Under the pieces are notes generated by a model. The model did not search any database, had not been told where the DNA came from, and was given only the letters and a program-made list of their open reading frames with translations. This document shows positions 15,986 to 46,966 of a DNA stretch of 64,000 nucleotides, in pieces. The position numbers and the translations under genes were made by a program. Numbering within the stretch: the stretch's first letter is position 1; each line of letters begins with the position of its first letter. Origin of the DNA: Somniosus microcephalus (lineage: Eukaryota); NCBI GenBank assembly GCA_052327205.1, contig CM126209.1:121396001-121460000 (forward strand), in the 5' to 3' direction.

Positions 15986-16964
15986 GCTCTTTTGAATTTG
16001 CAGTTTGCTGAAGTCGGCAAGTATTTTTTTAACTAAAGAAACTAGTTTAAAAGGGGCGTGCCTGGAGGACATTTGTTAGGTTAATCTCTTTCTCTTTAGC
16101 AAGTGAGAAGTACTGGAACAGCCATGGCCCATTGACATCACAATAATGTCACATGTAAGTGATGTGTGTGCGTGTAATGTGTTCCGAGATAATTTACATC
16201 AATGTTACTTTTTCACCACTTTAACACCAAGGGAAAACTGTAGTTTATTCCTGCCCTGTGGAAATTAGCAGCCATGTGTATTAACATTATTGTTTGTCTT
16301 CCGAAACATGATGCAGGGAAATTAGGCGGATGAGCTCCTGAGTAACATAATGTTTACAGGAGAAAGGAAAATCATTTTTCCAGAACAAACTCTCATGATG
16401 GAAACCTTTACTAGGGACAGAGAACGGTACCGTGGACCTCAGGTGTTGATATCCGAGTTCCTGACCTTCACCCTTTCTATGTGTGAGGGTCAGGATAAGA
16501 AGGAGGGTCACAAGCACTGTTCCCTCTAAGGTGCGCGGCTGCGCTCGCACACTAATCCCTGAGCTCCCACGCAGCTGAATTGAAATGCCCTGCAGAGAGC
16601 TGGACAGTAGCTGGAGCGGGGGAGGGGCCCAATACACGATGGCCCCGGGAATCCAGACAGACTCGTTTGTGAGTCTTGCGGCCTCAGAAGCCAATCACAA
16701 CTGCAGCTCTTGAAGCGTGTGTTCCGATGGTTGCTGTGTAACGCTGGGAGGGGTTTGGTTTTCTCCCTTGAATTTGGACCTTTCAGTGGGACAGCGGAAG
16801 AATCCCCCGCACTTTGATTATTTGCCTTTGCAGCCTTCCGTGCTGGCTCACAGTATACCGGAGCCGTGCATGCGCAGTATCCAGATAGGCCGCACTTTCG
16901 TTGACTTCATGCAGAGGTCAGGGGATCCGTTGGTGGCCAGTGGGGGAAAGGTCGAGGATCGAAA

Positions 16965-18371
16965 GGGGGGAGAGAGAGAATCGGAGGAGGGAGAGAGAGA
17001 GACTGGGGGAGAGAGATACCGGGGAGAGAGAGAGAGAGACTGGGGAGAGAGAGAGAGAAACTGGGGTGGGGGAGGAGAGAGAGAGAGACAGGGAGAGAGA
17101 GAGGGACTGGGGGAAGAGAGAGAGTGACTGGGGGAAGAGAGAGAGAGACTGGGGGAAGAGAGAGAGAGACTGGGGAAGAGAGACTGGGGGAGAGAGAGAG
17201 ACTGGGAGAGAGAGAGACTGGGAGAGAGAGAGAGACTGGGGGAGAGAGAGAGACGGGGGGGAGAGAGAGACTGGGGGTGAGAGAGAGACTGGGGGAGAGA
17301 GAGAGACTGGGGGAGAGAGATACTGGGGGGAGAGAGAGAGAGAGACTGGGGAGAGAGAGAGAGAAACTGGGGTGGGGGAGGAGAGAGAGAGAGATGGGGT
17401 GAGAGAGAGACGGGGTGAGAGAGAGACAGGGAGAGAGAGAGACTGGGGGGAAGAGAGAGAGAGACGGGGAAGAGAGAGAGAGACGGGGGAGAGAGAGAGA
17501 GACTGGGGATGAGAGAGAGAGACTGGGGAGAGAGAGAAACTGGGTGAGAGAGAGAGAGACTGGGGAGGAGAGAGAGAGGCTGGGGAGGAGAGAGAGAGAC
17601 GGGGAGGAGAGAGAGACTGGGGAGGAGAGAGAGAGACTGGGGTGAGAGAGACTGGGGAGAGAAAGAGAGACTGGGGGAGGAGAGAGGGACTGGGGGAGGA
17701 GAGAGAGACTGGGGAGAGAGAGAAACAGGGGAGAGAGAAAGAGAGACTGGGGAGGAGAGAGACTGGGGAGGAGAGAAACTGGGGGGGAGAGAGAGAGGGG
17801 GCGGGGGGAGAGAGAGAGGGGTGGGGGAGAGAAAGAGGGGCTGGGGAGAGAGAGAGAGAGACTGGGGGAGGAGAGAGAGACTGGGTGAGACGGGGGTGAG
17901 AGAGAGAGATGGGGTGAGAGAGAGAGACGGGGAGAGAGAGAGAGACGGGGAGAGAGAGAAACTGGGGGTGAGAGAGAAACGGGGTGAGAGAGAAACTGGG
18001 TGAGAGAGATGGGGAGAGAGAGAGAGAGAGATGGGGAAGAGAGAGCGAGACGGGGAGAGAGAGCGACTGGGGGGAGAGAGAGAGAGACGGGGAGAGAGAG
18101 AGACTGGGGAGAGAGAGAGAGAAAGATGGGGAACAGAGAGAGACTGGGGGAGAGAGAGAAACTTGGGGAGAGAGAGAGAGAAACTGGGGGAGAGAGAGAG
18201 AAACTGGGGGAGAGAGAGACTGGGGGGGACAGAGAGACGGGGAGAGAGAGAGGGACTGTTGAGAGAGAGAGACTGGGGGAGTGAGAGAGAGACTGGGGGA
18301 GGAGAGAGTGACTGGGCGAGAGAGAGAAAAACTGGGGGAGGAGAGAGGGAGATGGGGAGAGAGAGAGAGAC
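16965..18371 (+). repeat. GA-rich degenerate tandem array (GAGAGAGAGACTGGGGGA-like); continues at 28847-29085 and 29856-30045
   Basis: Visible purine-rich repeat; the three pieces are separated by the ERV and a LINE. Confidence 0.95.
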
Positions 18372-19840
18372 TGCAAAGGAATAGCCATATTTCAGAAAAA
18401 TACACTATCCTAGGAATGGAATTTTGACTTTATTAAAACATGAAAACTGGGTTTAAAAATCTAAAAGCCTCAAAGACACAAATCTGTAGATACAGGCTTC
18501 TGAGATAAGATGGGTTTGTTGACACAAAGCTGTAAACACCATACAAGCTTTTGAAATGGGTATGGCTGTCAATACTAAAACAAAGGCCCTATTGAAGAAG
18601 CAAAGGGTTGCTTCCAGAAAGTCTGCAGTTTGGGAGAAACACAATATCATTACCCAGTTTAAAGTGTTATAAACTAACACTTCGAACAGATACACAGAAC
18701 ATTAAAAAGCCATGTGCCTTTGATAAAAGTAACATCAAATGAAAGACAGGAGACATAAGTTTGTAATACAACCAACTAAGATGGCTAGGAAAACAATCAA
18801 GTACTTGGTTGAAGTGTTTTTGATTTACATATTGTAAAAGGTACAAACAGAAGACTTTGTAGATATGATATCAATAGATGCACCAAGCAATCACATTGTG
18901 TTTGTACTGAACTTGGAATAACTGGGAGACGAGAAGTCTGCTTTCAACCAGCTAAAGTGATTTAAGAATTAAATAGAAGACCTTCGTAAGAATGGCATCA
19001 AATAGATACATCTGTCATAACCATTTTTTATGATAAGCTTTGAACACCTACATAGCAGACAGAATTCTGCAAGCTAACAGCTGAATTGACAGTAAGAAAG
19101 AAAAAAAGTCAACAGAAATATGACTAGAGATAATTAGCTTACATCAGCAGAAAACTTCAAAGGATATACCACTGCATAAAGAGTATAAAAAATAAAACTT
19201 TCAGATAGGAAGTCAGAAGTCGCTGAAAGGGGTAAGCGATTCTCTCACTCTTCAGAGGCAGGCTCTGTAAGTTTTTAACTCTTTGAGTCTCGGGGGTCAA
19301 AAGGGTACCTTTATTTGATTTTGGTGGATATCCTAGATTAGAAATAAGGCTTAGAAATGTAAAAATGTAATGAAGTTAAGATTTGAGAATAAGGATCTCT
19401 GAGAATAAGAATTGTAAGCTATTTGTTTTTAGAACTGTTAATATTGCGACTCAAATCACCAGCTGTTAAATACATGTTGGTTCTTTAATAAATCTACATT
19501 TTTTTAGAATTGTTTCACAGAGTACTTCTGTATCAAACTTGTGAACTCAATTTCTGTACACTCTTTGGTGAGGAGTTGCAGAGTTCTGGGGATGTTTTCC
19601 GAACCCTCATAATATCCGGAAGGTTACAGTCTAGTTAAACTTACTAAAAGTGCTATCTGGAAGACGGTAAGATCTTCAAGTCATTCCTTTCCTTTAGGGA
19701 GAGATAGTCTGGACCTTTAGACCCAATTAAGCGTCTTATAGGATTCGGCTTTCTCTAACTTTAGTTGAAGGCGAACGTCTGGGGAATATGCCTGATCCGG
19801 GGTAGCCTGAAAAGGGCTAGGATTAGTAATTATCCCTTTA
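18372..19840 (+). repeat. ERV 5' LTR (TATAAAA 19184, donor GTAAGT 19267, AATAAA 19487)
   Basis: Direct repeat of 27378-28846; starts TG; followed by PBS. Confidence 0.95.
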
Positions 19841-19842
19841 GT

Positions 19843-19856
19843 TGGCACCCAATGTG
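19843..19856 (+). promoter_or_regulatory. PBS, tRNA-Lys1,2-type
   Basis: TGGCACCCAATGTG equals TGGCGCCCAACGTG with two CpG-type transitions. Confidence 0.8.
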
Positions 19857-20194
19857 TGTGTTAACAAGTTGATACAGAACCTATACTTATATTTATATCT
19901 ATATCATCTTGTAGATTGTTAAGTATAGAAGAAGTGTTTTACTGACAGTGGTACTAAGACCCAGATTTATGTCTCTAGAGACAACAAGTCCCTGATCAGG
20001 CCTTGTAGAACTTAAATCAGAACTTCCTCAATATACCATTGAGGTCTAAAAATTTCTTATAAAGTTCATATTAAACCCTAACCGAGGTTAGGTCCTGACG
20101 AAATGGCAAACTGTTGGAATTGGCTAAGTCTTTTTATTAGGAAATTGAAACGATTGCTTTATTAGGGGAAATAATCCTATCCCTATACCTCCAC

Positions 20195-20750
20195 GAAACA
20201 TAGAAACATAAAAGATAGGAGCAGCAGTAGGCCAGTCGGCCCCTTGAGCCTGTTCTGCCATTTAATGAGATCATGGCTGATTATCCAAATTCAGTACCCT
20301 GTCCCTGCTTTCTCCCCATATCCCTTGACCCCTTTAGCCTTAAGAAATATATCTAACTCCTTCTTGAATATATTTAATAAGTTGGCCTCAACTGCCTTCT
20401 GTGGTAGAGAATTCCCCAAGTTCACCACTCTCTGGGTGAAGAAATTCCCTCTCATCTCAGTCCTAAATGGCTTACCCCTTATCTTTAGACTGTGGCCCCT
20501 TGGTCTGGACTCCCCCGCCATCGGGAACATCCTTCCTGCATCTAGTCTGTCTAGTCCTGTTAGAATTTTATAAGTTTCAATGAGATCCCCTCTCATTCTT
20601 CTAAACTCTAGCGAATATAAGCCTAATTGACCCAATCTCCCTTCATATGTCATTCCTGCCATCCCAGGTATCAGTCTGGTGAATCTTCGCTGCACTCCCT
20701 CCATGGCAACAACATCCTTCCTCAGATAAGGCGACAAAACTGCACACAAG
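20195..20750 (-). mobile_element. CR1 LINE 3' fragment inserted in ERV gag
   Basis: ORF 20291-20869 part ([13 protein letters not shown]...RGDLIETYKIL...FFTQRVV) and CATAGAAA tail. Confidence 0.9.
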
Positions 20751-21758
20751 ACCAAGTGATAATTTTTGAAATAGAAGGCTTTGATGCCGACGGAGCTGTT
20801 AGAACTCATCGCACGATTAATGTTGATCCCCAGAACCAGGGGATACAGAATATCCTGCGGGATAATCAAACAAATACTCCAAATCCACTAAATTCCTTAA
20901 TGATAAGGTGCACACCTGCACAACTGGGAGGCCTAATGAACGGTGCCCAACAAGGTGGTGGCAACCATGGCCAAATAGCAGGACCCGGAGCAGCCTATGC
21001 TCCTGGGGGCCATGGATTCCAGTTAAGGTGGCAAGCTCATGATGAAATAAATGACCACAATCTTCGAGAAAACTATAGACAGCTTAGAATCCATTATAAT
21101 CAATGCCGACAGGCACTAGCTCAATCTTATTTAAATGCTGAGGTGCAATGATTAATGGTCCAGTAAGCCAACCCCGGCAACCACAAATTGCACCCCTAGG
21201 TCAAGTAAACCTGAGCTCTATCTACACAATGTGTGGTAGACTGTGAAATACCAGCCAGGAAAAAACCTGCTGGCTTCTAACTAACCTTGATAAATTGGAA
21301 AACTGTTGCCAAGGTTGGAATGCCCAACACCTGAGGCAACTACTGCAAATGATACTACGTAAATACCCCCATTAAACCAGTGTAACAACTCGGTTCAAAT
21401 ATATGCTTATGTTCTCACGGCAACTCAGGGAGGGCATGTAATGGGTTCCATCAAGGAAATACTCACTAATACAGCCAAGGGCTGGTAGCTGCCTATAGAA
21501 TAGGCAAAGTACTTACACAGGATAACTGGGACATTGTCCACAGTTGCCTGGCCAATCAATATCAAAATACAGCCCTCAGACTTGCCTGTGAGGGTGCTCT
21601 AAACGATTATCGAGATAACCAACAAAGATGGGATAATGTCAATCGCATTATCCAATTAAATCATGACCTCTTAGGTCTACCACAAACTAAACCTATAATG
21701 AGATCAGAAACTAGGGATAAAAAAAACGGAGAAGGTACCTTTGGTACTCAGAAACAAG

Positions 21759-22515
21759 GGCCTAGATTTTCAGTATAGACAGTTTTGGGGCGCTAACCTT
21801 TGCGCCCGCCCGAAGTTAGCGCCCGCCCCAAAGTAGCGCCCCGTTGCCGGAAATTCAGTGGCTTCGCCCTAAGAGGTTGGTGGAGCGCTAAAAGAGGCGT
21901 TCCACTACTATCTTTAGGCGCTAAGCCGGCGGTGCAGAGCGCAACACCCGAGCTCGGGCGCAGCGCACGGCAGACACTCTGGTGCCAGTGAGCTCTTAAA
22001 GGGGAAGGGTGCATGTGTTTTTTTTCCATAGGCAGAGTTTGGGGGGAAAAGATGACGAGGAGGAGGAGGAGGAGGAGGAGGAGGAGGAGGAGGTGGTGGT
22101 GGTGGTGGTGGTGGTGGTGTCCGGAAACATAAATACACCGTTCACAACCACACACTTGATCCTTCCACACAACACATGCAGAGTGCCGTATATGGTGCAG
22201 GAGGAGTGCCCTTTAATTTGCGCTCCCCAGGGTGTGTTGCGTTCCATTTTACAAACGCTCTGGACGCCAGCCGCACAATGGGGCGGTCCGACTGAAGTTT
22301 GGATTCGGGGCGGCCAAAGGGCGTTGCACGAGGATGTGACGTCATCTTCTGCGCGCGCATCCGGGCGGCCGCTAAACTTTGCGCCGGCGCTAACGGGCAA
22401 CTTAATTTGGGGCGGGGCGCAAACTGCGCTGCGCCCAGGCGCTACACGCATAGCGCCCGAAAATCACTTCTCTTAAGGCGCTAACTGCTGGCGCAAGCAA
22501 CTGAAAATCTAGCCC
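21759..22515. mobile_element. Harbinger-type MITE inserted in ERV gag, with (GAG)n(GTG)n microsatellite
   Basis: 16-bp TIRs GGCCTAGATTTTCAGT / ACTGAAAATCTAGCCC; TSD AAG/ATG; removing it restores the gag frame (KQGLY). Confidence 0.85.
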
Positions 22516-24945
22516 ATGGACTATATAGACCGAAGTCTCAAGTCCACCCCGCCCAGACACAAACTCGTGGCTCGGGGCCCCCAAGAGGGTATTCCAGAAG
22601 GTTTACACCCCCAACTCACCCACAATACGAGAAAGATTTCTCCCCAGAAAGATGGGATAGACGAGGGGCTAGACCTCGAAAGGAAAGCGAAGGACAGTGG
22701 ACTCCCTATGGGGGCAGTTTCTACACTGGCCAAAACTATCAGAGAGCCATGGGAGGATACTGGGAAAACCGAAATGGGGATTAAAAAGATTCCCGGCAGA
22801 ACCAATGTCCACCCCAACAGGAGGATCGTCAAGATAATAAACGGTCTGACAAACCCCCTCAGGGATCTGGAAAACATGATACCCCCAAGAGGGAGGAACA
22901 AAAATCAGTTAAAATAATTAAAGACAAAGGAGCAAATGAAACTCAGCATCCTGAGGATGAACAATCCCAGGATTGGAGGCCTGGCACCCAGCCAGGGCCT
23001 CTTGAATTCCCCTATGCCCTCGCAACCTTGCCCACAAACACACAAGTGAAGGCCCTGTTTGATACGGGAGCTGATTACACTGTAGTAGATCCTGCAATTA
23101 TAAAAACTAAGTAGACAGGTTTGGGAAGCCCAATTTGTAAAAAATCATTAGGGGGATTCACACAAGAGAAAACCAAAATAGTTAATTTTTATAAAATACC
23201 TATTACTAAATATGGAATCACGGTGACCCTAGATGTAGGACTGGTACCACAATTGGCCTGTTCCCTCATTATAGGACAACCAGACATGAAACATTACCTT
23301 AAAACTTCAACCAGACTTGTAGAAGCAGCCACAGACCAGGATGACAGGGAAAAACATGTTTGAACACAGCTTGATCGAACTTGCCTAGAGGGGGAAGGCA
23401 AAGACCTCCTCAAGCAGCTCATTAATAGATACTACTCTTATCTATAACGCCATCCAAATCAATGTGGAAAGATAGAGCATCTCCCCATCATGGAGGATGA
23501 TGATACGGAGGAGGGAATCAGACAAATACCTATGAGACCGCTCAGAGAGTACCATCAAGTCATTTACTGTGATTGATCATCGATGACGATTAAAAAAGTG
23601 ACATCCCAACAATCCTCAGCTGGGATGGGGATAGTAGTAGGGACTTTGAGATTCCTATTCTTTTTATCCAGAAGAATTACTGTCTATACCCCTTGGCCAT
23701 AAGACAGTGCAATATGCTGAAGCCGCAGCATTACGGTATGCTTTAGAAAAGGCAGACCCTATTAAACCCACACTAATCTTTATGGATAGTGACTATTGTA
23801 AAAGAGGATATAACTAAGATCTAGTTTTCTGGGAACAAACAAATTTTACCAATCATAAGGGTAAACCCATAAAATATAAATCATTGTGGGAAGATATTCT
23901 CCGTTCGAGAATGGAGAAACAGAATTGTCAGGTGATTCATGTAAACGGGCATACCACTGGGACAGTACACTCAAAAGGAAACAGCCTTGCAGACGAACAA
24001 GCAAAACGTTCAGTCTGCATGACACCCCCTCGACAGGGACCTGTCAATGTTAGTGTAATCACTAGGGCAGAACGGGCAGCTAATCAGAATGAGGAACTGA
24101 TTCAGCTATTAGACCCAACAAAAGAGAATACACCAGGATATCCACCAAAGTACTTTGACTCGGAAACCCCTACGGGTATTGTGCTAGTTAAGTTGCCCAA
24201 GGGAAACCGAGAGGTACCCCCGAGACACAAATGAGGACAGCTTGTAAAAGAAGCTCACGAGGGCATAAGTCAAGCACATTTTGGTGCCAGAACAACATTC
24301 TGCAAATTGACCTGTAAAACATATGTGGCAAATTGTGAGCCATGCTATTTAACCAATAAGTCATCACTAATTAAGCCACCACCATTGGCTCCTGTGAAGG
24401 CTGATGAGCCAATGGGAAAATTCTTTATTGACTTTATTGGACCACTTTCCCCGTCTTTGGGATATAGACATGTTCTCGTTTGTGTAGATGGATGGACTTC
24501 CTTCTGCTGGCTGGTCCCCACAAAAACTGTTTCGGAAAATGCACTTGCCAGGGCTATTTCTGATATAATTACTGTAGCTGTGCACCCAAAACCTTACACT
24601 CCGATCAAGGATTCAAGGTTTTCAAAGACTACTGCGAACAAAGGGGGATTGGGTTAGAGCACAGCACGCCACATCATCCGCAATCAGCGGGGCTGGCGGA
24701 ATGTAAAAACCAGGGAGTAAAAAAGCTATTGGTCAAACTGTTGAGAATCAGGGGGAATAAGTGGACCACCATCATTCTGGAGGTGCAGCTATCACTCAAT
24801 AATGTGCCCACATCTGCATCAGGGACAGTGTCCCCTAAAACTCCATATTATCTGATGTATGGGCTTGAGATGCCTACACCGCTTACCCATAGTTCTTTTA
24901 TTGCCTCTACACACTCTGAGTCCTTGACCCGACAGCAACAGTTAG

Positions 24946-26451
24946 TGTCAGTGTCCCAGCTACACGTTCCTCTGCTGGCCGCCAGAGGGCGGTTTAGGAG
25001 GCCTCAGTACACTGCTGCCATGTCTCTGTGCCTCTCTCCTCACCTGTGTCTCATTAGGGTAATTGTCTCATCAGAGTAATCAGGCCTGTTATTTAAGCTG
25101 ACTATTTCCGGCCCCAGTCGCTCAGTCTTGAGTTCTCATGCCTGCTAGTCACAGGTTAGTTTCTGGTCCTTGCCCTGCGTTTTGTATACTCACTCTTGTT
25201 TCTTTGAATTGTTACTTTGATCTTTGGTTTGAAGAATTCACTGTACGTCCTGTATTTGAAGAGCCTTCTACTAAAGCATCTTTTGAGTTTTACTTCATCC
25301 CAGGTCTCTGGCTGTCTGTCTGCACTTGGGTCCACTACCTCACCCGTAACAGCAAGACTTTGCCATCAACATGGACCCAGCAGAAACCAGCCAACCAAGG
25401 GAGGAGATTAATCAACTGTGCTCTGCCCTGATGAGCCAGGGAGCCACGGTCGGGAGGCATGACCGTTTGCTGCGGGAGATTCGTGATAGCCTGCATTCCC
25501 TAACCGAGGCTGTTTGGCCACAGCCATGTGGGAGCAACAAACCCCTTCCTGGTCCAACTGTCGGATGTTCACCGAGGAGATGAGGCGAGTCTTCGACCAT
25601 CCTGTTAGCGGGCGAGAGGCGGCCAATAGACTGCTCCATCCCCATCAGGGGAATCATAGTGTATCGGACTATGCCATTGAATTCCGTACTCTCGCCACGG
25701 CATTTTGATTCAACTGGGTGTAATGAATCACCCGGGCATATTGATTCTCCTGGGCATACTGAATCTCCTGGGCATATTGAATCTCCTGGGCATATTGAAT
25801 CACCTGGGCATATTGAATCACCTGGGCATAATGAATCACCTGGGCACATTGAATCACCTGGGTGTAATGAAGTCCATTCAAGATACTCCGGAAGATAAAC
25901 CCAGTTATCTACCGTCTCCTGAGGAGCGCTCCTGGGTTCTGGCTCGGGACATCCAGGATCCTGGGCTTATCCGGCAGTTCCACCGGCACCAGCCAGAGGC
26001 TACTGTGGGGACGTCAGGTGCCATCCCTAGGCGGGGGGGGGCTACTGTCAGGGTCCCAGCTACACGTTCCTCTGCTGGCCGCCAGAGGGCGGTTTAGGAG
26101 GCCTCAGTACACTGCTGCCATGTCTCTGTGCCTCTCTCCTCACCTGTGTCTCATTAGGGTAATTGTCTCATCAGAGTAATCAGGCCTGTTATTTAAGCTG
26201 ACTATTTCCGGCCCCAGTCGCTCAGTCTTGCGTTCTCATGCCTGCTAGTCACAGGTTAGTTTCTGGTCCTTGCCCTGCGTTTTGTATACTCACTCTTGTT
26301 TCTTTGAATTGTTACTTTGATCTTTGGTTTGAAGAATTCCCTGTACGTCCTGTATTTGAAGAGCCTTCTACTAAAGCATCTTTTGAGTTTTACTCCATCC
26401 CAGGTCTCTGGCTGTCTGTCTGCACTTGGGTCCACTACCTCACCCGTAACA
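24946..26451 (+). mobile_element. Non-autonomous Sushi/chromovirus LTR retrotransposon (1506 bp) inserted in ERV integrase
   Basis: 406-bp LTRs 24946-25351 and 26046-26451 (4 differences), TSD GTTAG, gag remnant (ATAMWE..MRRVFDHP..SVSDYAIEFRTLA), chromodomain tail (PEERSWVLARDIQDPGLIRQFH). Confidence 0.92.
25706..25870 (+). repeat. 18-bp tandem repeat (TTGAATCACCTGGGCATA), about 9 units
   Basis: Visible tandem array in the internal part of the mini-element. Confidence 0.9.
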
Positions 26452-27367
26452 GTTAGATTTAAAAAAAGAAGTAACAAAGGAGATTCATCGAATTGATCAG
26501 TGGATAAGGGAAGCAAATAGGCAGAAAAAATTGGCAAATAAAGCATAGCAACCCATAGTAGGAGAATGGGTGCAGGAAAAGAAGTTCGAGCAAAAACCTG
26601 GTTTAAGACCAAAGTGGAAAAAACCTGTTCAAATACATTCTGTTATTAACGAAAGAACAGTTAAAATACATATTAACCAGCCGAATGGCAAGCATATTCT
26701 TAAAACTGGCTCCGTAGACAATATCAAAAGATATCCTGCGGGATACTGAAAAGGAGGAACAATACAAGGTGCAGTCGTACACTGTCTTTCAAGACCCAGC
26801 TTGGAGCACGACACAGGAAATGGATGCGATCGAATTGCTGACGATGGTCAGTCAGACGGTGTCGCTGGCTCCTCCACACGTTGCTTGGCAACGCATCAGG
26901 AATTGGATTCACAAAAAGCAGCAACCGAAACAAGGAAAGATAAACGAGTTACTTCAGCGAAGGAGGAAGACACCACGGATGAAGAAGGAATCAACTGAGT
27001 GCCTGGCAAGGCCTTTACGAAAACATGCATCTGTACACAAGCCGGATCGAAGGAACAGCGTGTCAAGCTTCAACTAGTTTCAAATGACGTCTCCTTGACT
27101 CGTATGAATAACTCACCTCTATGGAACGTACATCTGCCGATTGGACATTCTAAGTACATGTTGTTTCGCTAATTGCATGACTATGTACCAATCATCCTTT
27201 TAAATTGTGTTCAATTTAAAATAAGGCAAAACATTGTCGTAGGATGACTTAAAAGGAATTTTCATGTAGCACATGATTGTGCATCTCGTGAAATTAATGT
27301 GCTATTGTAACCTTATTAGGAATATTGACCAAACTCTGCCCTGATGTTATGAGCTCATTTTTTGGTC

Positions 27368-27377
27368 AAGGGGGGGG
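27368..27377 (+). promoter_or_regulatory. Polypurine tract of the ERV
   Basis: AAGGGGGGGG immediately before the 3' LTR TGTAAAGG. Confidence 0.85.
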
Positions 27378-28846
27378 TGTAAAGGAATAGCCATATTTCA
27401 GAAAAATACACTATCCTATGAACGGAATATTGAGTTTATTAAAACATGAAAACTGGGTTTAAAAATCTAAAAAGCCTCAAAGACACAAAGCTGTAGATAC
27501 AGGCTTCTGAGATAAGATGGGTTTGTTGACACAAAGCTGTAAACACCATACAAGCTTTTGAAATGGGAACGGTTGTCGATACTAAAACAAAGGCCCTATT
27601 GAAGAAGCAAAGGGTTGCATCCAGAAGGTCTGCAGTTTGGGAGAAACACAATATCATTACCCAGTTTAAAGTGTTATAAACTAACACTTCGAACAGAAAC
27701 ACAGAACATTAAAAAGCCATGTGCCTTTGATAAAAGTAACATCAAATGAAAGACAGGAGACATAAGTTTGTAATACAACCAACTAAGGTGGCTAGGAAAA
27801 CAATCAAGTACTCGGTTGAAGTGTTTTTGATTTACATATTGTAAAAGGTACAAACAGAAGACTTTGTAGATATGATATCAATAGATGCACCAAGCAATCA
27901 CATTGTGTTTGTACTGAACTTGGAATAACTGGGAGACGAGAAGTTTGCTTTCAACCAGCTAAAGTGATTTAAGAATTAAATAGAAGACCTTCGTAAGAAT
28001 GGCATCAAATAGATACATCTGTCATAACCATTTTTTATGATAAGCTTTGAACACCTACATAGCAGACAGAATTCTGCAAGCTAACAGCTGAATTGACAGT
28101 AAGAAAGAAAAAAAGTCAACAGAAATATGACTAGAGATAATTAGCTTACATCAGCAGAAAACTTCAAAGGATAAACCACTGCAAAAAGAGTATAAAAAAT
28201 AGAACTTTCAGATAGGAAGTCAGAAGTCGCTGAAAGGGGCCAGCAATTGTCTCACTCTTCAGAGGCAGGCTCTGTAAGTTTTTAACTCTTTGAGTCTCGG
28301 AGATCAAAAAGGTACTTTTATTTGATTTTGGTGGATATCCTGGATTAAAAATAAGACTTAGAAATGTAAAAATGTAACGAAGTTAAGATTTGAGAATAAG
28401 GATCTCTGAGAATAAGAACTGTAAGCTATTTGTTTTTAGAACTGTTAATGTTGCGACTGAAATCACCAGCTGCTAAATACATGCCGGTTCTTTAATAAAT
28501 CTATATATTTTTGGAATTGTCTCAGAGTATTTCTGTATCAAACTCACGAACTCAATCTCTGTACACTCTTTGGTGAGGAGTTGCAGAGTTCTGGGGGGGG
28601 ATTTCCAGACCCTCATAATATCTGGAAGGTTACAGTCTAATTAAACTTATTAAAAGTGCTATCTGGAGGATGGTAACATCTTCAAGTCGTTCCTTTCCTT
28701 TAGGGAGGGATAGTTTGGACCTTTAGATCCAATTAAGCGTCTTATAGGATTCAGCTATCTCTAACTTTAGTTGAAGGCGAACGTCTGGGGAACATGCCTG
28801 ATCCGGGGTAGCCCAAAAAGGGCTAGGACTAGTAAGTATCCCTTCA
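27378..28846 (+). repeat. ERV 3' LTR
   Basis: TG...CA, 1469 bp, direct repeat of 18372-19840. Confidence 0.95.
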
Positions 28847-29085
28847 AGATGGGCGAGAGAGAGAGAGAGACTGGGGGAGAGAGAGAGATAGAGACTGGGA
28901 GAGAGATAGAGAGACGGGGAGGAGAGAGTGAGAGAGACTGGGGGGAGAGAGAGACTGGGAGAGAGAGAAAGAGACTGGGAGAGAAAGAGACTGGAAGAGA
29001 GAGAGACTGGGAGAGAGAGAGAGACTGGGAGAGAGACAGAGACGGGGAGGAGAGAGAGAGCGAGATGGGAAGGAGAGAGAGAGAG

Positions 29086-29855
29086 ACTGAAACTAAGTAC
29101 TCAGCCGGACCCTGACCAGCCCCAGACCAACACAGCCGTCCAAACACCAATCCGAGTGAACCAAATCATTAAAAAATGCAAAGAAACCTACCTGGAACAT
29201 TGGAACAAAATAACCGAAAGCCAAAGCAGATTAGAATGTTACCGGGCCCTAAAAAGAGAATATAAACTGGCAGACTACCTCACGACCATCAGAGACACAA
29301 AACAGAGACAGACCCTCACCAGGTACAGACTAAGCGACCACCAACTGGAAATTGAAAAAGGCAGATACAAGAAATCCTGGCAGCCTAGAGAGAATAGAAT
29401 ATGCGATCAATGTCTGGCTGGCGAGGTTGAAACAGAAATGCATTTCCTCCTAAAATGCGAAAAATTCAACACATCAAGAAACATATTATTCAACAAGCTA
29501 AGCCAAACAACCCCAGATTTCAAGGAATTGGATGATCTGTCAAAATTGAGATTAGTCCTAGGAGAAGGAGACAGACCATACCTTGGGGCTAAATATGTAA
29601 CAACATGTCACAACCTGAGGACTGTTTAAAAGTAAGACTGTTTAAAATTAATATTGAACGTACCAAATGAAGTAGAAAGACTGTTTAAAATTAATATTGT
29701 TTAAAAGTAATATTGTATATACCCAACAAATGTCAAATCGATTGACACCTACAGAATGTTGGAAAACTGTACCTTTTTGCTATGTAAGCTTTGGCAATAT
29801 GGTTCTCTGTAAACTTTCATGCCAATAAAGCATTTGAACTGAACTGAACTGAACT
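29086..29855 (+). mobile_element. 5'-truncated non-LTR retrotransposon, probably RTE-X-like, with (GAACT)n tail
   Basis: Open frame to 29629 with LTRYRLSDHQLEIEKGRY...ICDQC...ETEMHFLLKC zinc finger; AATAAA then (GAACT)4; clade assignment tentative. Confidence 0.75.
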
Positions 29856-30471
29856 GACTGGGGGGATAGAGAGAGAGACTGGGGGAGAGAGAGAGACAAG
29901 GAGAGAGAGAGAGACTGTGGGGAGAGAGAGAGACTGGGGGAGAGAGAGAGATACTGGTGGGGTGGAGAGAGAGAGGCTGGGGGAGAGAGAGAGAGAGAGA
30001 CGGGGGAGAGAGAGGGACAGAGACAGAGGGAGAGAGGGGTGAGGGTCCAGACACGTGTAGTCCATTCCTGGGGACTGAGTGGCGGCCGCACTTTGGAACA
30101 ACACAGGGAGGCGCAGCACATGTACAATGGCCGCTGGAAGGAGGCTAAAGCAAACAGGTTTTAGGCCCCCAGTGAAACAAAAATGAGAATTTTTAAAAAA
30201 ATTCAGAAAATTGTTTAAAGCTGGAAAAAAATACGGGAAAGTGATGTTGAATGTCCCGTGGTAAGTTCCAGTTAAATTTTGCCAAGTGTTGTCCCCTTTT
30301 TGAAAGAGTCTATCAGGGTTATTTATATCATGTTATGAGAGAGAGGAAAAAGTTTGTGCCCCTGTTTGTACCTCAGAGTCTGTGAGAGACGGAGGGAATG
30401 GGAGCAGGAAAAGAGGAAACAACTTCTCCAAAACTGATCCCAACTCATTTCCAAGTCTGGGGATAGATAAC

Positions 30472-30605
30472 ACAATAGCAAAATACTGCGGATGATGGAA
30501 ATCTGAAATAACAACAGAAAATGCTGGAAACACTCAGCAGGCCAGGCAGCATCCGTGGAGAGAGAAACAGAGTTAACGTTTCAGGTTTGTGACCCTTCGT
30601 CAGAA
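30472..30605 (-). mobile_element. 134-bp Penelope pLTR-type mini-insertion
   Basis: 15-bp TSD CTGGGGATAGATAAC (30457-30471, 30606-30620); similar to 35730-35870. Confidence 0.75.
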
Positions 30606-30607
30606 CT
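30570..30607 (-). ncRNA. Minimal type I hammerhead ribozyme motif
   Basis: AGTT-CTGACGA-AGGGTCACAAACCT-GAAA-CGTT-AACT on the minus strand. Confidence 0.7.
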
Positions 30608-32016
30608 GGGGATAGATAACCTCACTGCCTTCTTAGGAAGTTTAACCACTTTATTCACTTTCTTATTTGAGCTCCGTTTGGAATTAGAGTTTATTTTATT
30701 ATTTTTTGTTGTATGTTTAACGACAGCGTTGAAGAGGGGAAGAGAAACTTGGAGCAACTTCTTCTGTCAAAGCTGCAACGAGACTTGAAAGAATTTAAAG
30801 ATTTTTAATGAACTTTTCACAAAAAATGAGTGTTAAAAACATTTTTTCTCCCCTTAGTTTCGAATATGATTTTGGAAGAAACAGAAACAAAAATCAATTT
30901 TTCCCTCATCTAAACAAGTTTTAATCAGGTCTTGAAGTCCAAATGCTTTTACAGGCTCTGATATGCTTAAAACATTTTAAAATTGAAATTTCTCAATATT
31001 TGATTTAGCGATTGAGTGAAGTGAGTAGCTTTACACAAACATGCAACCATGCTGTTGAGGAGGGGGAGGGCAGGGAGGATTTGTAGGAGTTACGTATTAC
31101 TTTTTATTGACTTTTAAAAATATATCATTAATACGTTTAGGAAGAGAACCAAAAAAGGGGAAAAACACAAACCATTTTATTTTGTCTGTCGTTCTATTGT
31201 CCTAACAAGTCCCAGGAATAATGTAAATATAGATTTCCTCTTAAATGTTTAGTGGAGTGTTAATAGAAACATGAGTTATGTAATGGTGTATAAAACTTGC
31301 AGGAAGCTACTTTAGAAGAAACTATTATTTGTTTATTGAGAAAGACACATAAAATACTTTGATTAAACTGATAATGTACCATTTTGATTTGGTATAAATG
31401 TTTGAAATAGGAGATTAAAAATTGAGAGTACAATGAAGTTTGTTTCCCACTATTTAATTGGGAAGTACCTAAAATAATTCAATACATTTCGTGATAAGAG
31501 CAGGGATTAATATTGTGGAGAATGTTTGAGAGAAAAATATTAGAACGGAAATTCATAAATTAACATCTTTACGTCAACGTATTAGTAAATATTTCCAAGT
31601 CAGTCTGATTGGTTCTCTTGTCCAGGAAGAAAGATGAATGTTTATTTATGTTAAATCATAGCTTTTCCCGCTTTTTGTTTTTAATTCAGTGACACAAATT
31701 GTGTATGTGTTTTTCTGCACTTGTGAATAAGTGCTGCATTTCTGACATGTTACACGGTGGGTGTGCTGGTTCAAAAAGACGACGTTTATGAATGGAAGTG
31801 ATTGAAGTTGGAAATACGGATACTCGTTTTTGTTCAATTCTTTTTAATACTGTGAACTAAAGAACTACAGCACTTTATATTTGTTGGTTGTCTGCTTGCA
31901 TTGTGATTAATATTCTAATAATTTACGTGGACGTACAGCACGTCAGTGCCATAGGAAAACTGCTGTTCCTGCTGTTTGTGCAGCCATTGCTATAGTGACA
32001 TGAGGGATGGGCTAAT

Positions 32017-32405
32017 ACATAGAAACATAGAAGATAGGAGCAGGAGTAGGCCATTCGGCCCTTCGAGCCTGCTCCGCCATTCAACGAGATCATGGCTGAT
32101 CATCCAAACCCTAGCACCCGGTCCCTACACCGACAGCCATCCCACCCAAGCCCTATCCCCGTAACCCCACGTATTTAATCCCCCCTAACACTAAGGGTCA
32201 ATTTTTAAAATTTTTTTTTATCATGGCCAATCAACCTAACCCACACATCTTTGGACTGTGGGAGGAAACCAGAGCACCCGGAGGAAACCCACGCAAACAC
32301 GGGGAGAATGTGCAAACTCCACACAGACAGTCACCCAAGGCCGGATTTGAACCCGGGTCCCTGGCGCTGTGAGGCAACAGTGCTAACCACTATGCCACCG
32401 TGCTC
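32017..32405 (-). mobile_element. HE1-type V-SINE (~32110-32405) next to a CR1 3' tail (~32017-32105)
   Basis: tRNA-like head GCACGGTGGCATAGTGGTTAGCAC...GGTTCAAATCC and V-domain GTGTGGAGTTTGCACATTCTCCCCGTG. Confidence 0.85.
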
Positions 32406-32649
32406 CATACGTTGAGAACTTTAAAATTAATACAAATTGCACAAATAGATATGCCTCTTTCAGCTCACCTTGGGCTTTTGGATTGTTTGTCGATGCATAA
32501 CCTTGTAACTGAGTGACGGTTCTGAAGTGTTAACGCATTATTGTGCAGTTCTTTTACATCCCAGTCATTTCTGACAAGTAATTTTTAATTAAATAGAGTT
32601 TGTACATGATGAACTAAAAGCTTTTAATTAATTCTACCGTAAACAAACT

Positions 32650-32917
32650 TGCAGGATGGGCATGTAAATGACAAATGAATTTCAATATAGAGAAGTGTGA
32701 GGTGGTGCATTTTGGTAGGAGGAATAAGGAGGCTACCTACTCCTTGGAAAATAAGAGTCTAAATGGGGTAGAGATCTAGGGATATAGTTTCACAAATCAT
32801 TAAAAGTAGCAACGCAGGTTAAAAAAGCCAAAGGAGTGCAAATAAAGCACTGGGGTTAATTTCTAGAGGAATAGAATTCAAAAGCAGAGAAGTTATGTTA
32901 AACTTGTATAGAACCTC
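32650..32917 (+). mobile_element. CR1 internal fragment
   Basis: FNIEKCEVVHFG motif. Confidence 0.7.
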
Positions 32918-33569
32918 GTCAGATTGTCTCATGATTTGAGATGGTGGGGTGGCAATATGGCATTACTGTATATATGCTTTTAAGTGGTTGCTGTTGTTGT
33001 AAAAGTTGTTGTTGTTTTAAAATTTGCTCACAGACGAAAAGGTCGCGCTCAAAAGAGTTTGTGGCCCGCTCAGTACAAAAAAAATTCGAGGGAACATTGG
33101 TCACAAGTGCGTTCAACCTGTGCAGAGAGGGAAGACTGTCAACCTGCCGGCAGGCTGTAGAACTGACGTAGCAGATCGCCCGTCTGTTATAGAAACCGCA
33201 CGGTTTTCATTTCTATTGAATTCTGTTGAAAATATTGTGTGGTTTCTATTAAGAGCGACCAATCCATAATGCCAGTTATACAGCCGGTCGGAGAGTTGAC
33301 AATCTACACCCATTAAGAGCAGAATTCAGTGTGTGACAGGTGAGCACGAACTTGGGCACAATGGAAGATTTTACAGTCTGCTCGACTAATTTCTTATTAC
33401 ATTTTTATTACATTTCCACGGTAACTTCATTTTAAATGAATGGTATTTGGATGACGCAGTTGATAATTGACCACTCTCCCCAGCAGCCCCATAGCATGAC
33501 ACTGAGCCACACAGACCAGAAAGACCCAGGTTCAAGGCCTAGCCTGAGCTGAGGAGCCAATTGGTTCCT

Positions 33570-34125: not shown

Positions 34126-34260
34126 CAACGTTTCCTCTAAACTGCGCGCGGGCGTGGTCGCGCAGTAATCTGTAGGCTTTTACATTGGAAATACCACGGA
34201 TGCGCAGAAATTGAAAGAAACTGGCCGTGCAGAATAAAACGCAGCTTACAAGGCACACTG
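34126..34260. mobile_element. 135-bp hAT MITE
   Basis: Left end CAACGTTTCCTCTAA like the 16515 TIR; 8-bp TSD GCGGCAAA/GCGGTAAA. Confidence 0.65.
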
Positions 34261-34753: not shown

Positions 34754-36154
34754 GCCATGGTGTGGAGATGCCGGTGTTGGACTGGGGTGGACAAGTGTAA
34801 GAAACCACACAACACCAGGTTATAGTCCAACAGCTTTATTTGAAATCACAAGCTTTCGGAGCGCTGCTCCTTCGTCAGTTGAAGTGGAGAGATGCATAAA
34901 AACACAGCTTATATAGTCAGAGAATAATTTCAGATGTTTACAGGTAATCTTTCTAACTGCCATTTATCACACCTCGGCAGAGAGATAATCACAGCAATCA
35001 AAGGTGTAAATGGTGTCCAAACAGGTCAGTCAGGAAAACATTACATCAAAGAGCAATGAGGTGGGGTCACAAGGGGTCAAATGTTGCAGATGCTGGGGTC
35101 TGTATGAAAAACAAAAAAAGACAAAAAACATTTTTTTTGCTGGAAATCACAGCAAGTCCGGCCGCATCTGTGTGGAGAGAACAAGCCAACGACGACTCGA
35201 GTCTGGATGACCCTACGTCAGGTGGGGTTACATGTAGCGTGACATGAACCCAAGATCCCGGTTCAGGCCATCCTCATGGGTGCGGAGCTTGGCTATCAGT
35301 TTCTGCTCGATGATTTTGCGAGACATGCCAGATCATCAACACAGATACCATCATCACACGTGAGGACACCACCCACCAGGTACATGGTACATACTCATGT
35401 GACTCGGCCAACGTTGTCTACCTCATACGTTGCAGGAAAGGTTGCCCCGGAGCACGGTACATCGGCGAGACCATGCAGACACTGCGACAACGGATGAACG
35501 GACACCGCGCAACAATCGCCAGGCAGGAGTGTTCCCTCCCAGTCGGGGAACACTTCAGCAGTCAAGGACATTCAGCCTCCGATCTTCAGGTAAGCATTCT
35601 CCAAGGCGGCCTTCGAGACACACGACAACGCAAAATCATCGAGCAGAAACTGATAGCCAAGTTCCGCACCCATGAGGACGGCCTGAACCGGGATCTTGGG
35701 TTTATGTCACACTACATGTAACCCCACCTGACGTAGGGTCATCCAGACTCGAGTCGTCGTTGGCTTGTTCTCTCCACACAGATGCGGCCGGACCTGCTGT
35801 GATTTCCAGCAAAAAAAATGTTTTTTGTCTGTTTTTTTGTTTTTCATACAGACCCCAGCATCTGCAACATTTGACCCCTTGTGACCCCACCTCATTGCTC
35901 TTTGATGTAATGATTTCCTGACTGACCTGTTTGGACACCATTTACACCTTTGATTGCTGTGATTATCTCTCTGCCGAGGTGTGATAAATGGCAGTTAGAA
36001 AGATTACCTGTAAACATCTGACATTATTCTCTGACTATATAAGCTGTGTTTTTATGCATCTCTCCACTTCACCTGACGAAGGAGCAGCGCTCCGAAAGCT
36101 GGTGATTTCAAATAAAGCTGCTGGACTATAACCTGGTGTTGTGTGACTTCTTAC
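34754..36154 (+). mobile_element. 5'-truncated Penelope-like element with inverted pLTR arm
   Basis: 13-bp TSD ATATGATTAGATT; GIY-YIG endonuclease (NVVYLIRC...RYIGETMQTLRQRMNGH...GLNRD) at 35320-35721; inverted arms 34797-35320 / 35629-36154. Confidence 0.92.
36069..36105 (+). ncRNA. Minimal hammerhead motif in Penelope pLTR (mirror copy 34846-34882, minus strand)
   Basis: TCAC-CTGACGA-A-GGAGC-AGC-GCTCC-GAAA-GCT(G/T)-GTGA. Confidence 0.7.
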
Positions 36155-38580: not shown

Positions 38581-40009
38581 CTTGAGGGAAACATGAGGGA
38601 AAATAACATTCCCAAGAGGAGGTGAACGTGTGACTTCCTCTCACTGAGGATATTCCCGTTTGCAGTAGAGCTGGGTCACTGAAAAGCTTTCAGCTCTGCA
38701 GTAAAGCTCTGCATGTTGGCCTTTCTACAGGCCATTCTGTCAAGTGAATGCAAGAGAGCAAGAAATAAAGCAAGACTATCAGCCCATCATCCCCACTCCT
38801 TCCACTGCCCATGTACACCCTGCCCTATCGAGACTCTACCACACACCTTTAAGGGAAACTCCCACCTCACTAGACCGGAGCATGGGTCATAGACTTGGCC
38901 CCTTACACCATTACAGCCCTATCTCCGAACCGTGCTCCTGTCTAGTGAGGCTCCCCCATAGTGAACGGAGCCTCCCAAATTGCCCCTTTAATCTCGGGGG
39001 GAAAATCGGCATAAATTTTCCTTTATTTGCAAAGGCAATTGATCCATCCTCACACCGCCACAGCCTGCTGCTGTCCAGACACCATTCCTTGCCTCACACT
39101 ACTGGGATCAGATGGGCTATCCTTGGCTACAGCAAACAAAAGACACAATGTAAGGAGCTTGGCAACAATTCCATGTTGCACACAGATAAATAAATCACCA
39201 GGCACGGTGCTCTCGGGAGCTGAGGAGTTGACAGGCTCTTATTATTATCATACAAATTATTCCTGCACACATTACGCTAAAGAAAATGTACATACTGTGA
39301 AACCCGGCAAAGGAAATTGAGAAAAATCTATTAAGCTAGCCTTAATTCTCTTTCAAGTAATTTTATTTGTGATTCGTGTAATTTAAGTGGCAAACATGTA
39401 GCAGTATGTGATTCCAGATAAATAACGGGCCTCTTGATTTATCTGTTATTTGCCCTGAATTCTATTCTTGCCATTCATTAATATTTCAATAATATGTAAT
39501 AAAAACTCTGGAAATCTGAAATCAAAAGAGCAAATGTGGGTCAGAATCTGAATGGGAAATGTAATGTGTTGGACTGTTACGTTGTGTACTTCTGACATCT
39601 TCTATTTTGATTTTGGAGCATATAATCTCTTTGTTGCTATTAAGCATCACCTTCCATGTTTACAAGCCATGCAGCTCCATTTCCCAGCAGTGTTGTAGTA
39701 TGCTGAAACTGATGAGCTTGGCTTTCATCCACCAGCCACTGGCAGGGACACTCCACTGTGCAGTATGTCCAGTAGAACCTCGAGTAACCACACTCTCAGT
39801 GTTCACACTCTCAATGTTCTGGGAGTTTTGATTGAGCTTTGCATAACTTAGCTAAAATACAATTGAGTATTTTAAGTTGTGTCTAGTGCTTGGTAGAATT
39901 TACTATCCACTTAGCTTTGATTTTTATTATTGAGTCAGGGCTTCAGGGCAGGAAACCAGCAGAACCCAGGCTTCAGGTCAAAAGCCAGCAGGACTTAGGC
40001 TTCAGACTA

Positions 40010-41540
40010 GGAGACCAGCAGGACTCAGGGATTTGGAGCAGGAGACCAGCAGGACTCGGGGATTTGGAGCAGGAGACCAGCAGCACTTGGGGATTTGGAG
40101 CAGGAGACCAGCAGGACTCGGGGATTTGGAGCAGGAGACCAGCAGCACTCAGGGATTTGGGGCAGGAGACCAGCAGGACTCGGGGATTTGGGGCAGGAGA
40201 CCAGCAGCACTCGGGGATTTGGAGCAGGAGACCAGCAGCACTCGGGGATTTGGAGCAGGAGACCAGCAGCACGTGGGGATTTGGAGCAGGAGACCAGCAG
40301 GACTCGGGGAGTTGGGGCAGGAGACCAGCAGCACTTGGGGATTTGGAGCAGGAGACCAGCAGGACTCGGGGAGTTGGGGCAGGAGACCAGCAGGACTTGG
40401 GGATTTGGAGCAGGAGACCAGCAGCACTCGGGGATTTGGAGCAGGAGACCAGCAGCACTCAGGGATTTGGAGCAGGAGACCAGCAGGACTCGGGGATTTG
40501 GGGCAGGAGACCAGCAGGACTCGGGGATTTGGAGCAGGAGACCAGCAGCACTCGGGGATTTGGAGCAGGAGACCAGCAGGACTCGGGGATTTGGGGCAGG
40601 AGAGCAGCAGGACTCGGGGATTTGGGGCAGGAGACCAGCAGGACTCGGGGATTTGGAGCAGGAGACCAGCAGCACTCAGGGATTTGGGGCAGGAGACCAG
40701 CAGGACTCGGGGATTTGGGGCAGGAGACCAGCAGCACTCGGGGATTTGGAGCAGGAGACCAGCAGCACTCGGGGATTTGGAGCAGGAGACCAGCAGCACG
40801 TGGGGATTTGGAGCAGGAGACCAGCAGGACTCGGGGAGTTGGGGCAGGAGACCAGCAGCACTTGGGGATTTGGAGCAGGAGACCAGCAGGACTCGGGGAG
40901 TTGGGGCAGGAGACCAGCAGGACTCGGGGATTTGGAGCAGGAGGCCAGCAGCACTCGGGGATTTGGAGCAGGAGACCAGCAGGACTTGGGGATTTGGAGC
41001 AGGAGACCAGCAGCACTCGGGGATTTGGAGCAGGAGACCAGCAGCACTCAGGGATTTGGAGCAGGAGACCAGCAGGACTCGGGGATTTGGGGCAGGAGAC
41101 CAGCAGGACTCGGGGATTTGGAGCAGGAGACCAGCAGCACTCGGGGATTTGGAGCAGGAGACCAGCAGGACTCGGGGATTTGGGGCAGGAGAGCAGCAGG
41201 ACTCGGGGATTTGGGGCAGGAGACCAGCAGGACTCGGGGATTTGGGGCAGGAGACCAGCAGGACTCGGGGATTTGGAGCAGGAGACCAGCAGCACTCGGG
41301 GATTTGGAGCAGGAGACCAGCAGGACTCGGGGATTTGGAGCAGGAGACCAGCAGGACTCGGGGATTTGGGGCAGGAGACCAGCAAGACTCGGGGATTTGG
41401 GGCAGGAGAGCAGCAGGACTCGGGGATTTGGGGCAGGAGACCAGCAGGACTCGGGGATTTGGGGCAGGAGACCAGCAAGACTCGGGGATTTGGGGCAGGA
41501 GACCAGCAGGACTCGGGGATTTAGAGCAGGAGACCAGCAG
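40010..41540 (+). repeat. 31-bp minisatellite (GGAGACCAGCAGGACTCGGGGATTTGGAGCA), about 49 units
   Basis: Visible tandem array; produces the repetitive multi-frame ORFs. Confidence 0.97.
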
Positions 41541-42204
41541 GAGTCAGGCTGCCAGAATTTTATTGTGATATCTCATTTTTAAAGTGATAAATGTGGGTTG
41601 TAACTCCACATGCAGTGAACTTGATTGGGTAATCTCAATCAGAAGTCAAAACCTCATAACTGTATCAGGTTCAGATTAGGTGGACACTTGATTATCTAAC
41701 ATTCTGCCGAGGGGGCAGGGATAATTGTGATTCCACTGTAATCATGTTGTTAGTCATTACAACTAAAGTTGATTTTATTGTCTGCCCCAGTGACTCAGTG
41801 GGAAAGTTCTCTTTTTGCCATTGAGCCATAAAGACCAGAAAGTCCCAAGTTTGATTCTTGGTCTGTGTTGAGTTAGACTATCTCAGTTAGGATGGGGGCA
41901 GGGTGGGGTGCTGCAGCTGACCTGGAGAGGAGAAAAATCAGCCAGTATTCTCACTTCCGCTCATTATCCAGACACCAGTGCAAAGTGCCTGTGTGTAGAG
42001 ATTCTTGTGAACAAAGGACTTGGCTTGTGATAGCTGCCAAGGCAAATTGCCTGCCATGGTCTCAAAAGGCACACAAAGGAAGAATGCCACTTGTAAAAAG
42101 TAACAGAGGGATGGTAGGAAGGCACCACCCCCAACATAACCATCCATGTCCAGGAATATAAAGGACATTGAATAAAAAGTTGGTATTATTTTGTAGCACA
42201 CAGA

Positions 42205-46747: not shown

Positions 46748-46966
<219 letters not shown>

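Follow-up and report, generated by a model that had tools for sequence, protein, structure and literature searches.

Non-autonomous hAT elements of vertebrates, such as MER1, MER30 and the Charlie derivatives, are described in the accessible part of the source as having short terminal inverted repeats (TIRs), target site duplications (TSDs) of 8 bp, no transposase and many copies (PMC5753468). According to the available sections of the respective papers, MER6, a Mariner MITE (miniature inverted-repeat transposable element), spread a V domain of short interspersed nuclear elements (SINEs) (PMC6887750), and Teratorn is a fusion of piggyBac and a herpesvirus (PMC5822658; PMC6431247). Foamy-like endogenous retroviruses (ERVs) of fish have a 4-bp TSD and a GGGTG motif among their traits (PMC5210030) and are already known from sharks (PMC5512871, PMC10699275), as stated in the portions at hand of these texts. 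Here we analyzed a 64,000-nt stretch of the Somniosus microcephalus genome (GCA_052327205.1, contig CM126209.1, positions 121,396,001 to 121,460,000, hereafter the window), in which an element with hAT-type ends (16507..33107) encloses an entire foamy-like provirus lacking reverse transcriptase (RT). The original prediction proposed either accumulation in place within a ~4.5-kb non-autonomous element or a DNA transposon carrying the provirus as cargo. Our results make ordinary nesting very probable: a hAT copy settled here, insertions accumulated in place and the provirus landed later.

The 8-bp TSD is present in two identical copies (8/8) and the 15-bp TIRs match at 13 of 15 positions, 16.6 kb apart, exactly where they had been predicted (Table 1). 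One TIR mismatch is family-wide (left CAC, right CAA), the other is unique to the window copy, and no further match to the left TIR, with up to 2 mismatches, occurs within the 64-kb window. These ends go beyond chance, since both are multicopy and they co-occur in 32 of 59 other copies, in 25 of these 32 with an 8-bp TSD, which also confirms the earlier view that they belong to one family. We assigned the element to hAT because of the TSD, the TIRs and the target bias, with T at position 2 in 22 of 25 TSDs and A at position 7 in 19 of 25 (hand count). The pattern nTnnnnAn is the target preference of hobo/Hermes-type hATs. No Pfam family, that of a transposase included, was found in a six-frame scan of 30040-33099 (the left 446 bp are outside that scan). 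The element is non-autonomous, and a hAT transposase supplied from elsewhere likely moved it.

In the 6.45-Gb genome, the first look gave 521 candidates for the left end and 1,209 for the right end, and the best 40 were scored per end. In total, 59 copies were read over 10-30 kb (one short copy lies in a 3-kb locus), namely 38 left-end copies, out of 39 besides that of the window, and 21 additional right-end ones. Compared with the other 39 top-scoring copies, the left end shows 79-86% identity. Among the 32 copies with both ends recovered, an own 8-bp TSD (at least 6/8) was counted in 18 of 21 from the left-end set and in 7 of 11 from the right-end set. Their length ranges from 1.1 to 29.3 kb (median of 4.4 kb), reaching at least 10 kb in 7; 3 are longer than the window copy, one of them with 26.3 kb and an 8/8 TSD. 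Therefore, 16.6 kb is not an unusual size for this family.

The copies share a common plan, in which the 446-bp left end is followed by a GA satellite and by equivalents of 30040-30471, 30606-32025 and 32407-33099, with compact copies of 3.0-3.5 kb. Of 38 other copies, 36 have the satellite after the left end; its size varies between copies from absent to more than 29 kb. A CR1 RT fragment (32621-32915) is also family-wide, with 23 and 26 of the 29 right-end loci running across its borders, and the family was therefore amplified with passengers aboard. The contents listed by the original prediction (GA array, provirus with three insertions, LINE, mini-element, SINE-like piece and CR1 piece; LINE, long interspersed nuclear element) are all present, but the GA satellite and the CR1 fragment are family features rather than local insertions. 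The ~4.5-kb non-autonomous element it envisaged compares with a base of ~3.0-3.5 kb, to which a GA array of variable length is added, giving ~4.8 kb here.

Compared with MER1, MER30 and the Charlie derivatives, as far as the accessible part of PMC5753468 describes them, this family is similar in its short TIRs, 8-bp TSD, lack of transposase and high copy number, but it is larger (3-3.5 kb), has a captured CR1 fragment besides the internal GA satellite (absent to >29 kb), and its cognate transposase was not found among the loci fetched. It resembles MER6, in the available account (PMC6887750), as a DNA transposon amplified with a retroelement fragment inside; it differs in having hAT-type ends, a CR1 fragment and a satellite as passengers, and a provirus that is not family-wide.

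Some further observations were made on this family and its neighbors. In one copy (G000:C2:205083094-205113093) the GA satellite exceeds 29 kb and the interior was not reached. Some of the closest pairs are 0.3-3 Mb apart on one contig (L121/L122, L126/L129, L278/L279), which fits local hopping. A 155-bp MITE (L218:420-574) shares the TIR type of the family, and a motif resembling its TIR is found at 34126-34140, just right of the window element. There is also a young autonomous hAT family (L241-L254) of ~2.85 kb, which has perfect 8-bp TSDs and whose open frames extend to 613-637 aa; the TIRs of the 613-aa family differ from those of the window element (10 of 20 loci fetched).

The provirus (18372-28846) has long terminal repeats (LTRs) of ~1,470 bp with TG...CA ends, its own 4-bp duplication (AGAC/AGAT) and a GGGTG junction between polypurine tract and LTR. 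Gag and protease, both of spumavirus type, were recognized by Pfam, as were RNase H and the C-terminal domain of the integrase. In PDB, the integrase piece matched foamy virus (prototype foamy virus, PFV) integrases only (E 5.5e-21). Neither RT nor env was detected in the provirus by the Pfam scan. The primer-binding-site-like motif at 19843-19860 may be of tRNA-Lys type.

If a hAT family had spread this provirus in the manner of Teratorn, a defective provirus would have moved without reverse transcription, giving a parallel of Teratorn for retroviruses. The likeness, in the available sections of PMC5822658 and PMC6431247, is the presence of transposon ends flanking viral DNA, but Teratorn has its own transposase, is multicopy and keeps intact viral genes. 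In contrast, the LTRs and the 4-bp TSD of the window provirus are its own, the provirus is broken and a single copy of the family contains it, and no transposase was found by Pfam in the six frames of 30040-33099. Passengers did travel with this family, as the GA satellite and the CR1 fragment attest. However, three reciprocal tests were all negative: LTR or proviral interior in 0 of 59 other hAT copies within the span read, a GA flank at 0 of 57 nearest LTR loci, and hAT sequence at 0 of 20 fetched RT-less proviruses, the nearest ones. In none of these 20 are the three insertions of the window provirus found at matching place and orientation; both ends were available for two, each with a TSD of its own, and their LTR pairs differ by 4.1% and 5.0%. 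An exact 4-bp TSD is present in 20 of 37 related LTR loci having both ends.

Genome-wide searches for the junction patterns (up to 2 mismatches) returned one match for the right junction, the window itself, and two for the left one. The second left match (L332, L334-L338) contains a more distant LTR from this broad family, located at a GA-array border beside degraded hAT interior pieces (82-86%), and could be taken as a trace of cargo. We rejected it as a duplicate, considering that the LTR is only 73-79% identical and that neither proviral interior nor matching hAT ends occur within 50 kb; judged by its sequence, it is a separate insertion. As a rough reference, with candidate counts standing in for copy numbers, chance would place 0.5-1.7 proviral interiors and 2-9 LTRs inside the hAT family. 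A true carrier family is thus refuted as far as sampled, and the carrier claim of the original prediction fails on the very grounds it had named, no other examined hAT copy having the provirus and no proviral junction having a genome-wide duplicate; we consider its probability negligible.

Separate integrations account for the spread of the RT-less form. All 39 other scored matches are co-linear with the window across the RT-less junction, with 93-94% identity (best 40 of 1,135 candidates, including the window itself). Relatives sampled by their protease (20 of 58 hits, in even steps) are 89-95% identical up to ~23481 and then diverge. An extra stretch in 13 of these 20 has a YVDD motif, and 8 rejoin the window sequence ~1.26 kb further on; RT-bearing relatives were counted from motif presence plus gap size. 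The short region before the 3' LTR is unbroken in 11 of 20 related proviruses. The RT-less form is a widespread deletion lineage, also short of env, with RT-bearing relatives, and therefore no carrier is needed. It spread by separate integrations, likely with enzymes supplied by the RT-bearing relatives, and is probably a non-autonomous foamy lineage. ETn and MaLR are non-autonomous ERVs in which internal deletion lineages were amplified beside complete relatives; the window lineage is spumavirus-type, not class II or ERV-L-type. The foamy-like ERVs of fish, in the accessible text of PMC5210030, PMC5512871 and PMC10699275, are similar in the 4-bp TSD, the GGGTG junction and the spumavirus Gag, protease and integrase. 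The window lineage differs from them in lacking RT and env, and yet it has many separate integrations.

Regarding the order of events, the LTR pair of the provirus diverges by 4.9% (confidence interval, CI, 3.8-6.1) and the window hAT copy by 7.3% (CI 6.2-8.5) from its nearest relative among 45, the median pair being 10.3% apart; the transversions are 1.3% and 2.9%, respectively. By these distances, the LTRs look younger than the split between the window hAT copy and its nearest relative. A contig from public runs of a related organism (two studies), differing by 25-26 substitutions over 593 bases (4.2%), passes from the left flank through the TSD into the element, and therefore the hAT copy was most likely present here before this ~4.2% split. 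A run of organism B with a small share reached part of the flank and was left out of this comparison. The small LTR element inside the provirus has LTRs 1.5% apart, and the LINE (29090-29857) matches other copies at 99-100%. The hAT family spread with the GA satellite and the CR1 fragment already inside, and each copy then collected its own insertions. In the window, the order would be the hAT copy, the provirus, the insertions within the provirus and, as the youngest, the GA-seeking LINE (0-1% to relatives). The provirus most likely entered the GA satellite by its own integrase, after the hAT copy had settled.

Several points weigh against this order and against ordinary nesting. The proviral TSD has one mismatch. 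When CpG sites are left out, the hAT copy (5.6%, CI 4.6-6.6) and the LTRs (4.1%, CI 2.9-5.1) have overlapping intervals, and one of 1,021 hAT pairs, with different right flanks, is 5.1% apart; therefore the family may still have moved near the age of the provirus. The contig of the related organism extends 29 letters past the TSD, 2 below the 31-letter bridging rule. The samples are the best-scoring copies and not every copy, and the far end was not reached in 27 of the 59 copies with 10-30 kb read. Finally, no cognate transposase was found among 50 hAT-domain (PF05699) loci. Together with the lack of a transposase inside, this last point would suit a real element of another cut-and-paste superfamily. 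P and Merlin are also cut-and-paste superfamilies with 8-bp TSDs. The short CA-starting TIRs and the bias for T2 and A7 argue against such an assignment, to which we give a very small chance.

The overlap of the non-CpG intervals and the 5.1% pair, near the LTR age, could also accommodate a single hop. In that case the provirus would have joined a hAT element elsewhere, and the loaded element (~12 kb by then) would have reached its present place, late in the family's period of activity, in one cut-and-paste move with no copy remaining at the origin; a DNA transposon would thereby have transported a retrovirus unable to copy itself. In favor of this, the TSD and both TIRs remain intact, and a non-replicative move makes no duplicate, so that the negative searches do not bear on it. 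However, no positive sign of a hop was found. With the hAT element here before the 4.2% split and the integration at 4.9%, the time left for it is narrow, and the other 1,020 of the 1,021 hAT pairs are more than 5.5% apart. In addition, the young 613-aa family has different TIRs, and long, insertion-rich copies without the provirus are frequent. We regard a single hop as having a small chance, and ordinary nesting remains the explanation that we adopt.

The GA satellite is also a target of the LINE found inside it. A 32-base pattern recovered 4,619 exact 3' ends of this LINE genome-wide, often clustered on one strand; among the first 30 listed, GA satellite is next to the end in 20 (strict cut-off) and hAT sequence within 1.5 kb in none. 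The LINE or a relative is present in 8 of 59 hAT copies, 7 times in one copy, and the hAT family therefore provides some of its landing sites; the LINE was also noted at L158, L296, L300, L137 and L273. A relative with 68% identity carries a GDSL (esterase) ORF1 (ORF, open reading frame), an endonuclease and an RT, the arrangement of the RTEX clade, to which the LINE may belong. Esterases occur also in CR1 and Penelope elements (PMC3905857). The 134-bp mini-element (30472-30605) is dispersed and recurs at many fetched loci. The hammerhead proposed for it would rest on a core motif with two hairpins, but Rfam gave no hammerhead match, whether at the gathering score or with E values allowed up to 1, nor was any RNA family of Rfam found in the window hAT element. 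The features of the window element are given in Table 1.

Table 1. Features of the window element, in window coordinates (K2P, Kimura two-parameter distance).
Feature	Position	Strand	Evidence or remark
Left TSD GTCACAAG	16507..16514	+	Identical to 33100-33107
hAT left end, TIR at 16515-16529	16515..16960	+	Family matches
GA satellite, left part, unit ~18 bp	16961..18371	+	Family feature
Provirus left TSD AGAC	18368..18371	+	AGAT in the right copy (28847-28850), with a single change, at a putative CpG
Foamy-like provirus 5' LTR	18372..19840	+	K2P 4.9% vs 3' LTR
Primer-binding-site-like motif	19843..19860	+	Sequence
CR1-type LINE 3' fragment, inside provirus	20195..20756	-	tblastn to host LINE ORF, E 4e-48; absent there in 20 related proviruses
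Broken gag, interrupted by TIR element	20757..22900	+	PF20672 Gag_FV_central, E 8e-8
~760-bp element with TIRs, inside provirus	21760..22517	.	Absent there in 20 related proviruses
Broken pol with spumavirus protease, RNase H and integrase	23040..24945	+	PF03539, PF00075; PFV integrase E 5.5e-21
~1.26-kb gap including RT	23473-23481	+	Size from RT-bearing relatives
Small LTR element, 410-bp LTRs 1.5% apart, 5-bp TSD GTTAG, within integrase gene	24946..26451	+	
Integrase C-terminal part, ~650 bp without env match, polypurine tract (GGGTG junction)	26452..27377	+	PF18103
Foamy-like provirus 3' LTR	27378..28846	+	LTR pair
GA satellite, middle part	28847..29089	+	
Young 5'-truncated LINE, (AACTG)n tail, inside GA satellite	29090..29857	+	ORF; 99-100% copies in other arrays
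GA satellite, right part	29858..30039	+	
hAT interior part 1	30040..30471	+	Co-linear with other copies
134-bp mini-element, 15-bp TSD, hammerhead-like core	30472..30605	-	Unique to window copy
hAT interior part 2	30606..32025	+	Co-linear with other copies
SINE-like insertion, CR1-like tail	32026..32406	-	Unique to window copy; absent from other copies
hAT interior part 3: CR1 RT fragment 32621-32915 and right TIR 33085-33099	32407..33099	+	
Right TSD	33100..33107	+	Identical to 16507-16514

Outside the hAT element, the window contains long inverted repeats (96%) that flank an ORF of 135 aa, nuclease-like in appearance (34951-36000); the unit may be of Penelope type. A minisatellite at 40009-41542 has ~49.5 copies of a 31-bp unit (93%), and one exon-sized piece of a protein kinase domain, the only one seen, lies at 46790-46948 (-); it may be part of the stk32 gene named in the original prediction.

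In the literature searched, which leaves most subscription journals outside, no title or abstract opening matched nested hAT cases in sharks, an RTEX LINE that targets GA satellites, or an RT-less or non-autonomous foamy lineage, copies of which supplementary ERV tables could list. As a case of ordinary nesting, the locus is relevant mainly for annotation and for the order of events in a very large genome. The more interesting results lie at its sides: a foamy-like ERV lineage, short of both RT and env, that multiplied next to relatives with RT, and a family of DNA transposons in which the internal GA satellites grow and receive a GA-seeking LINE.

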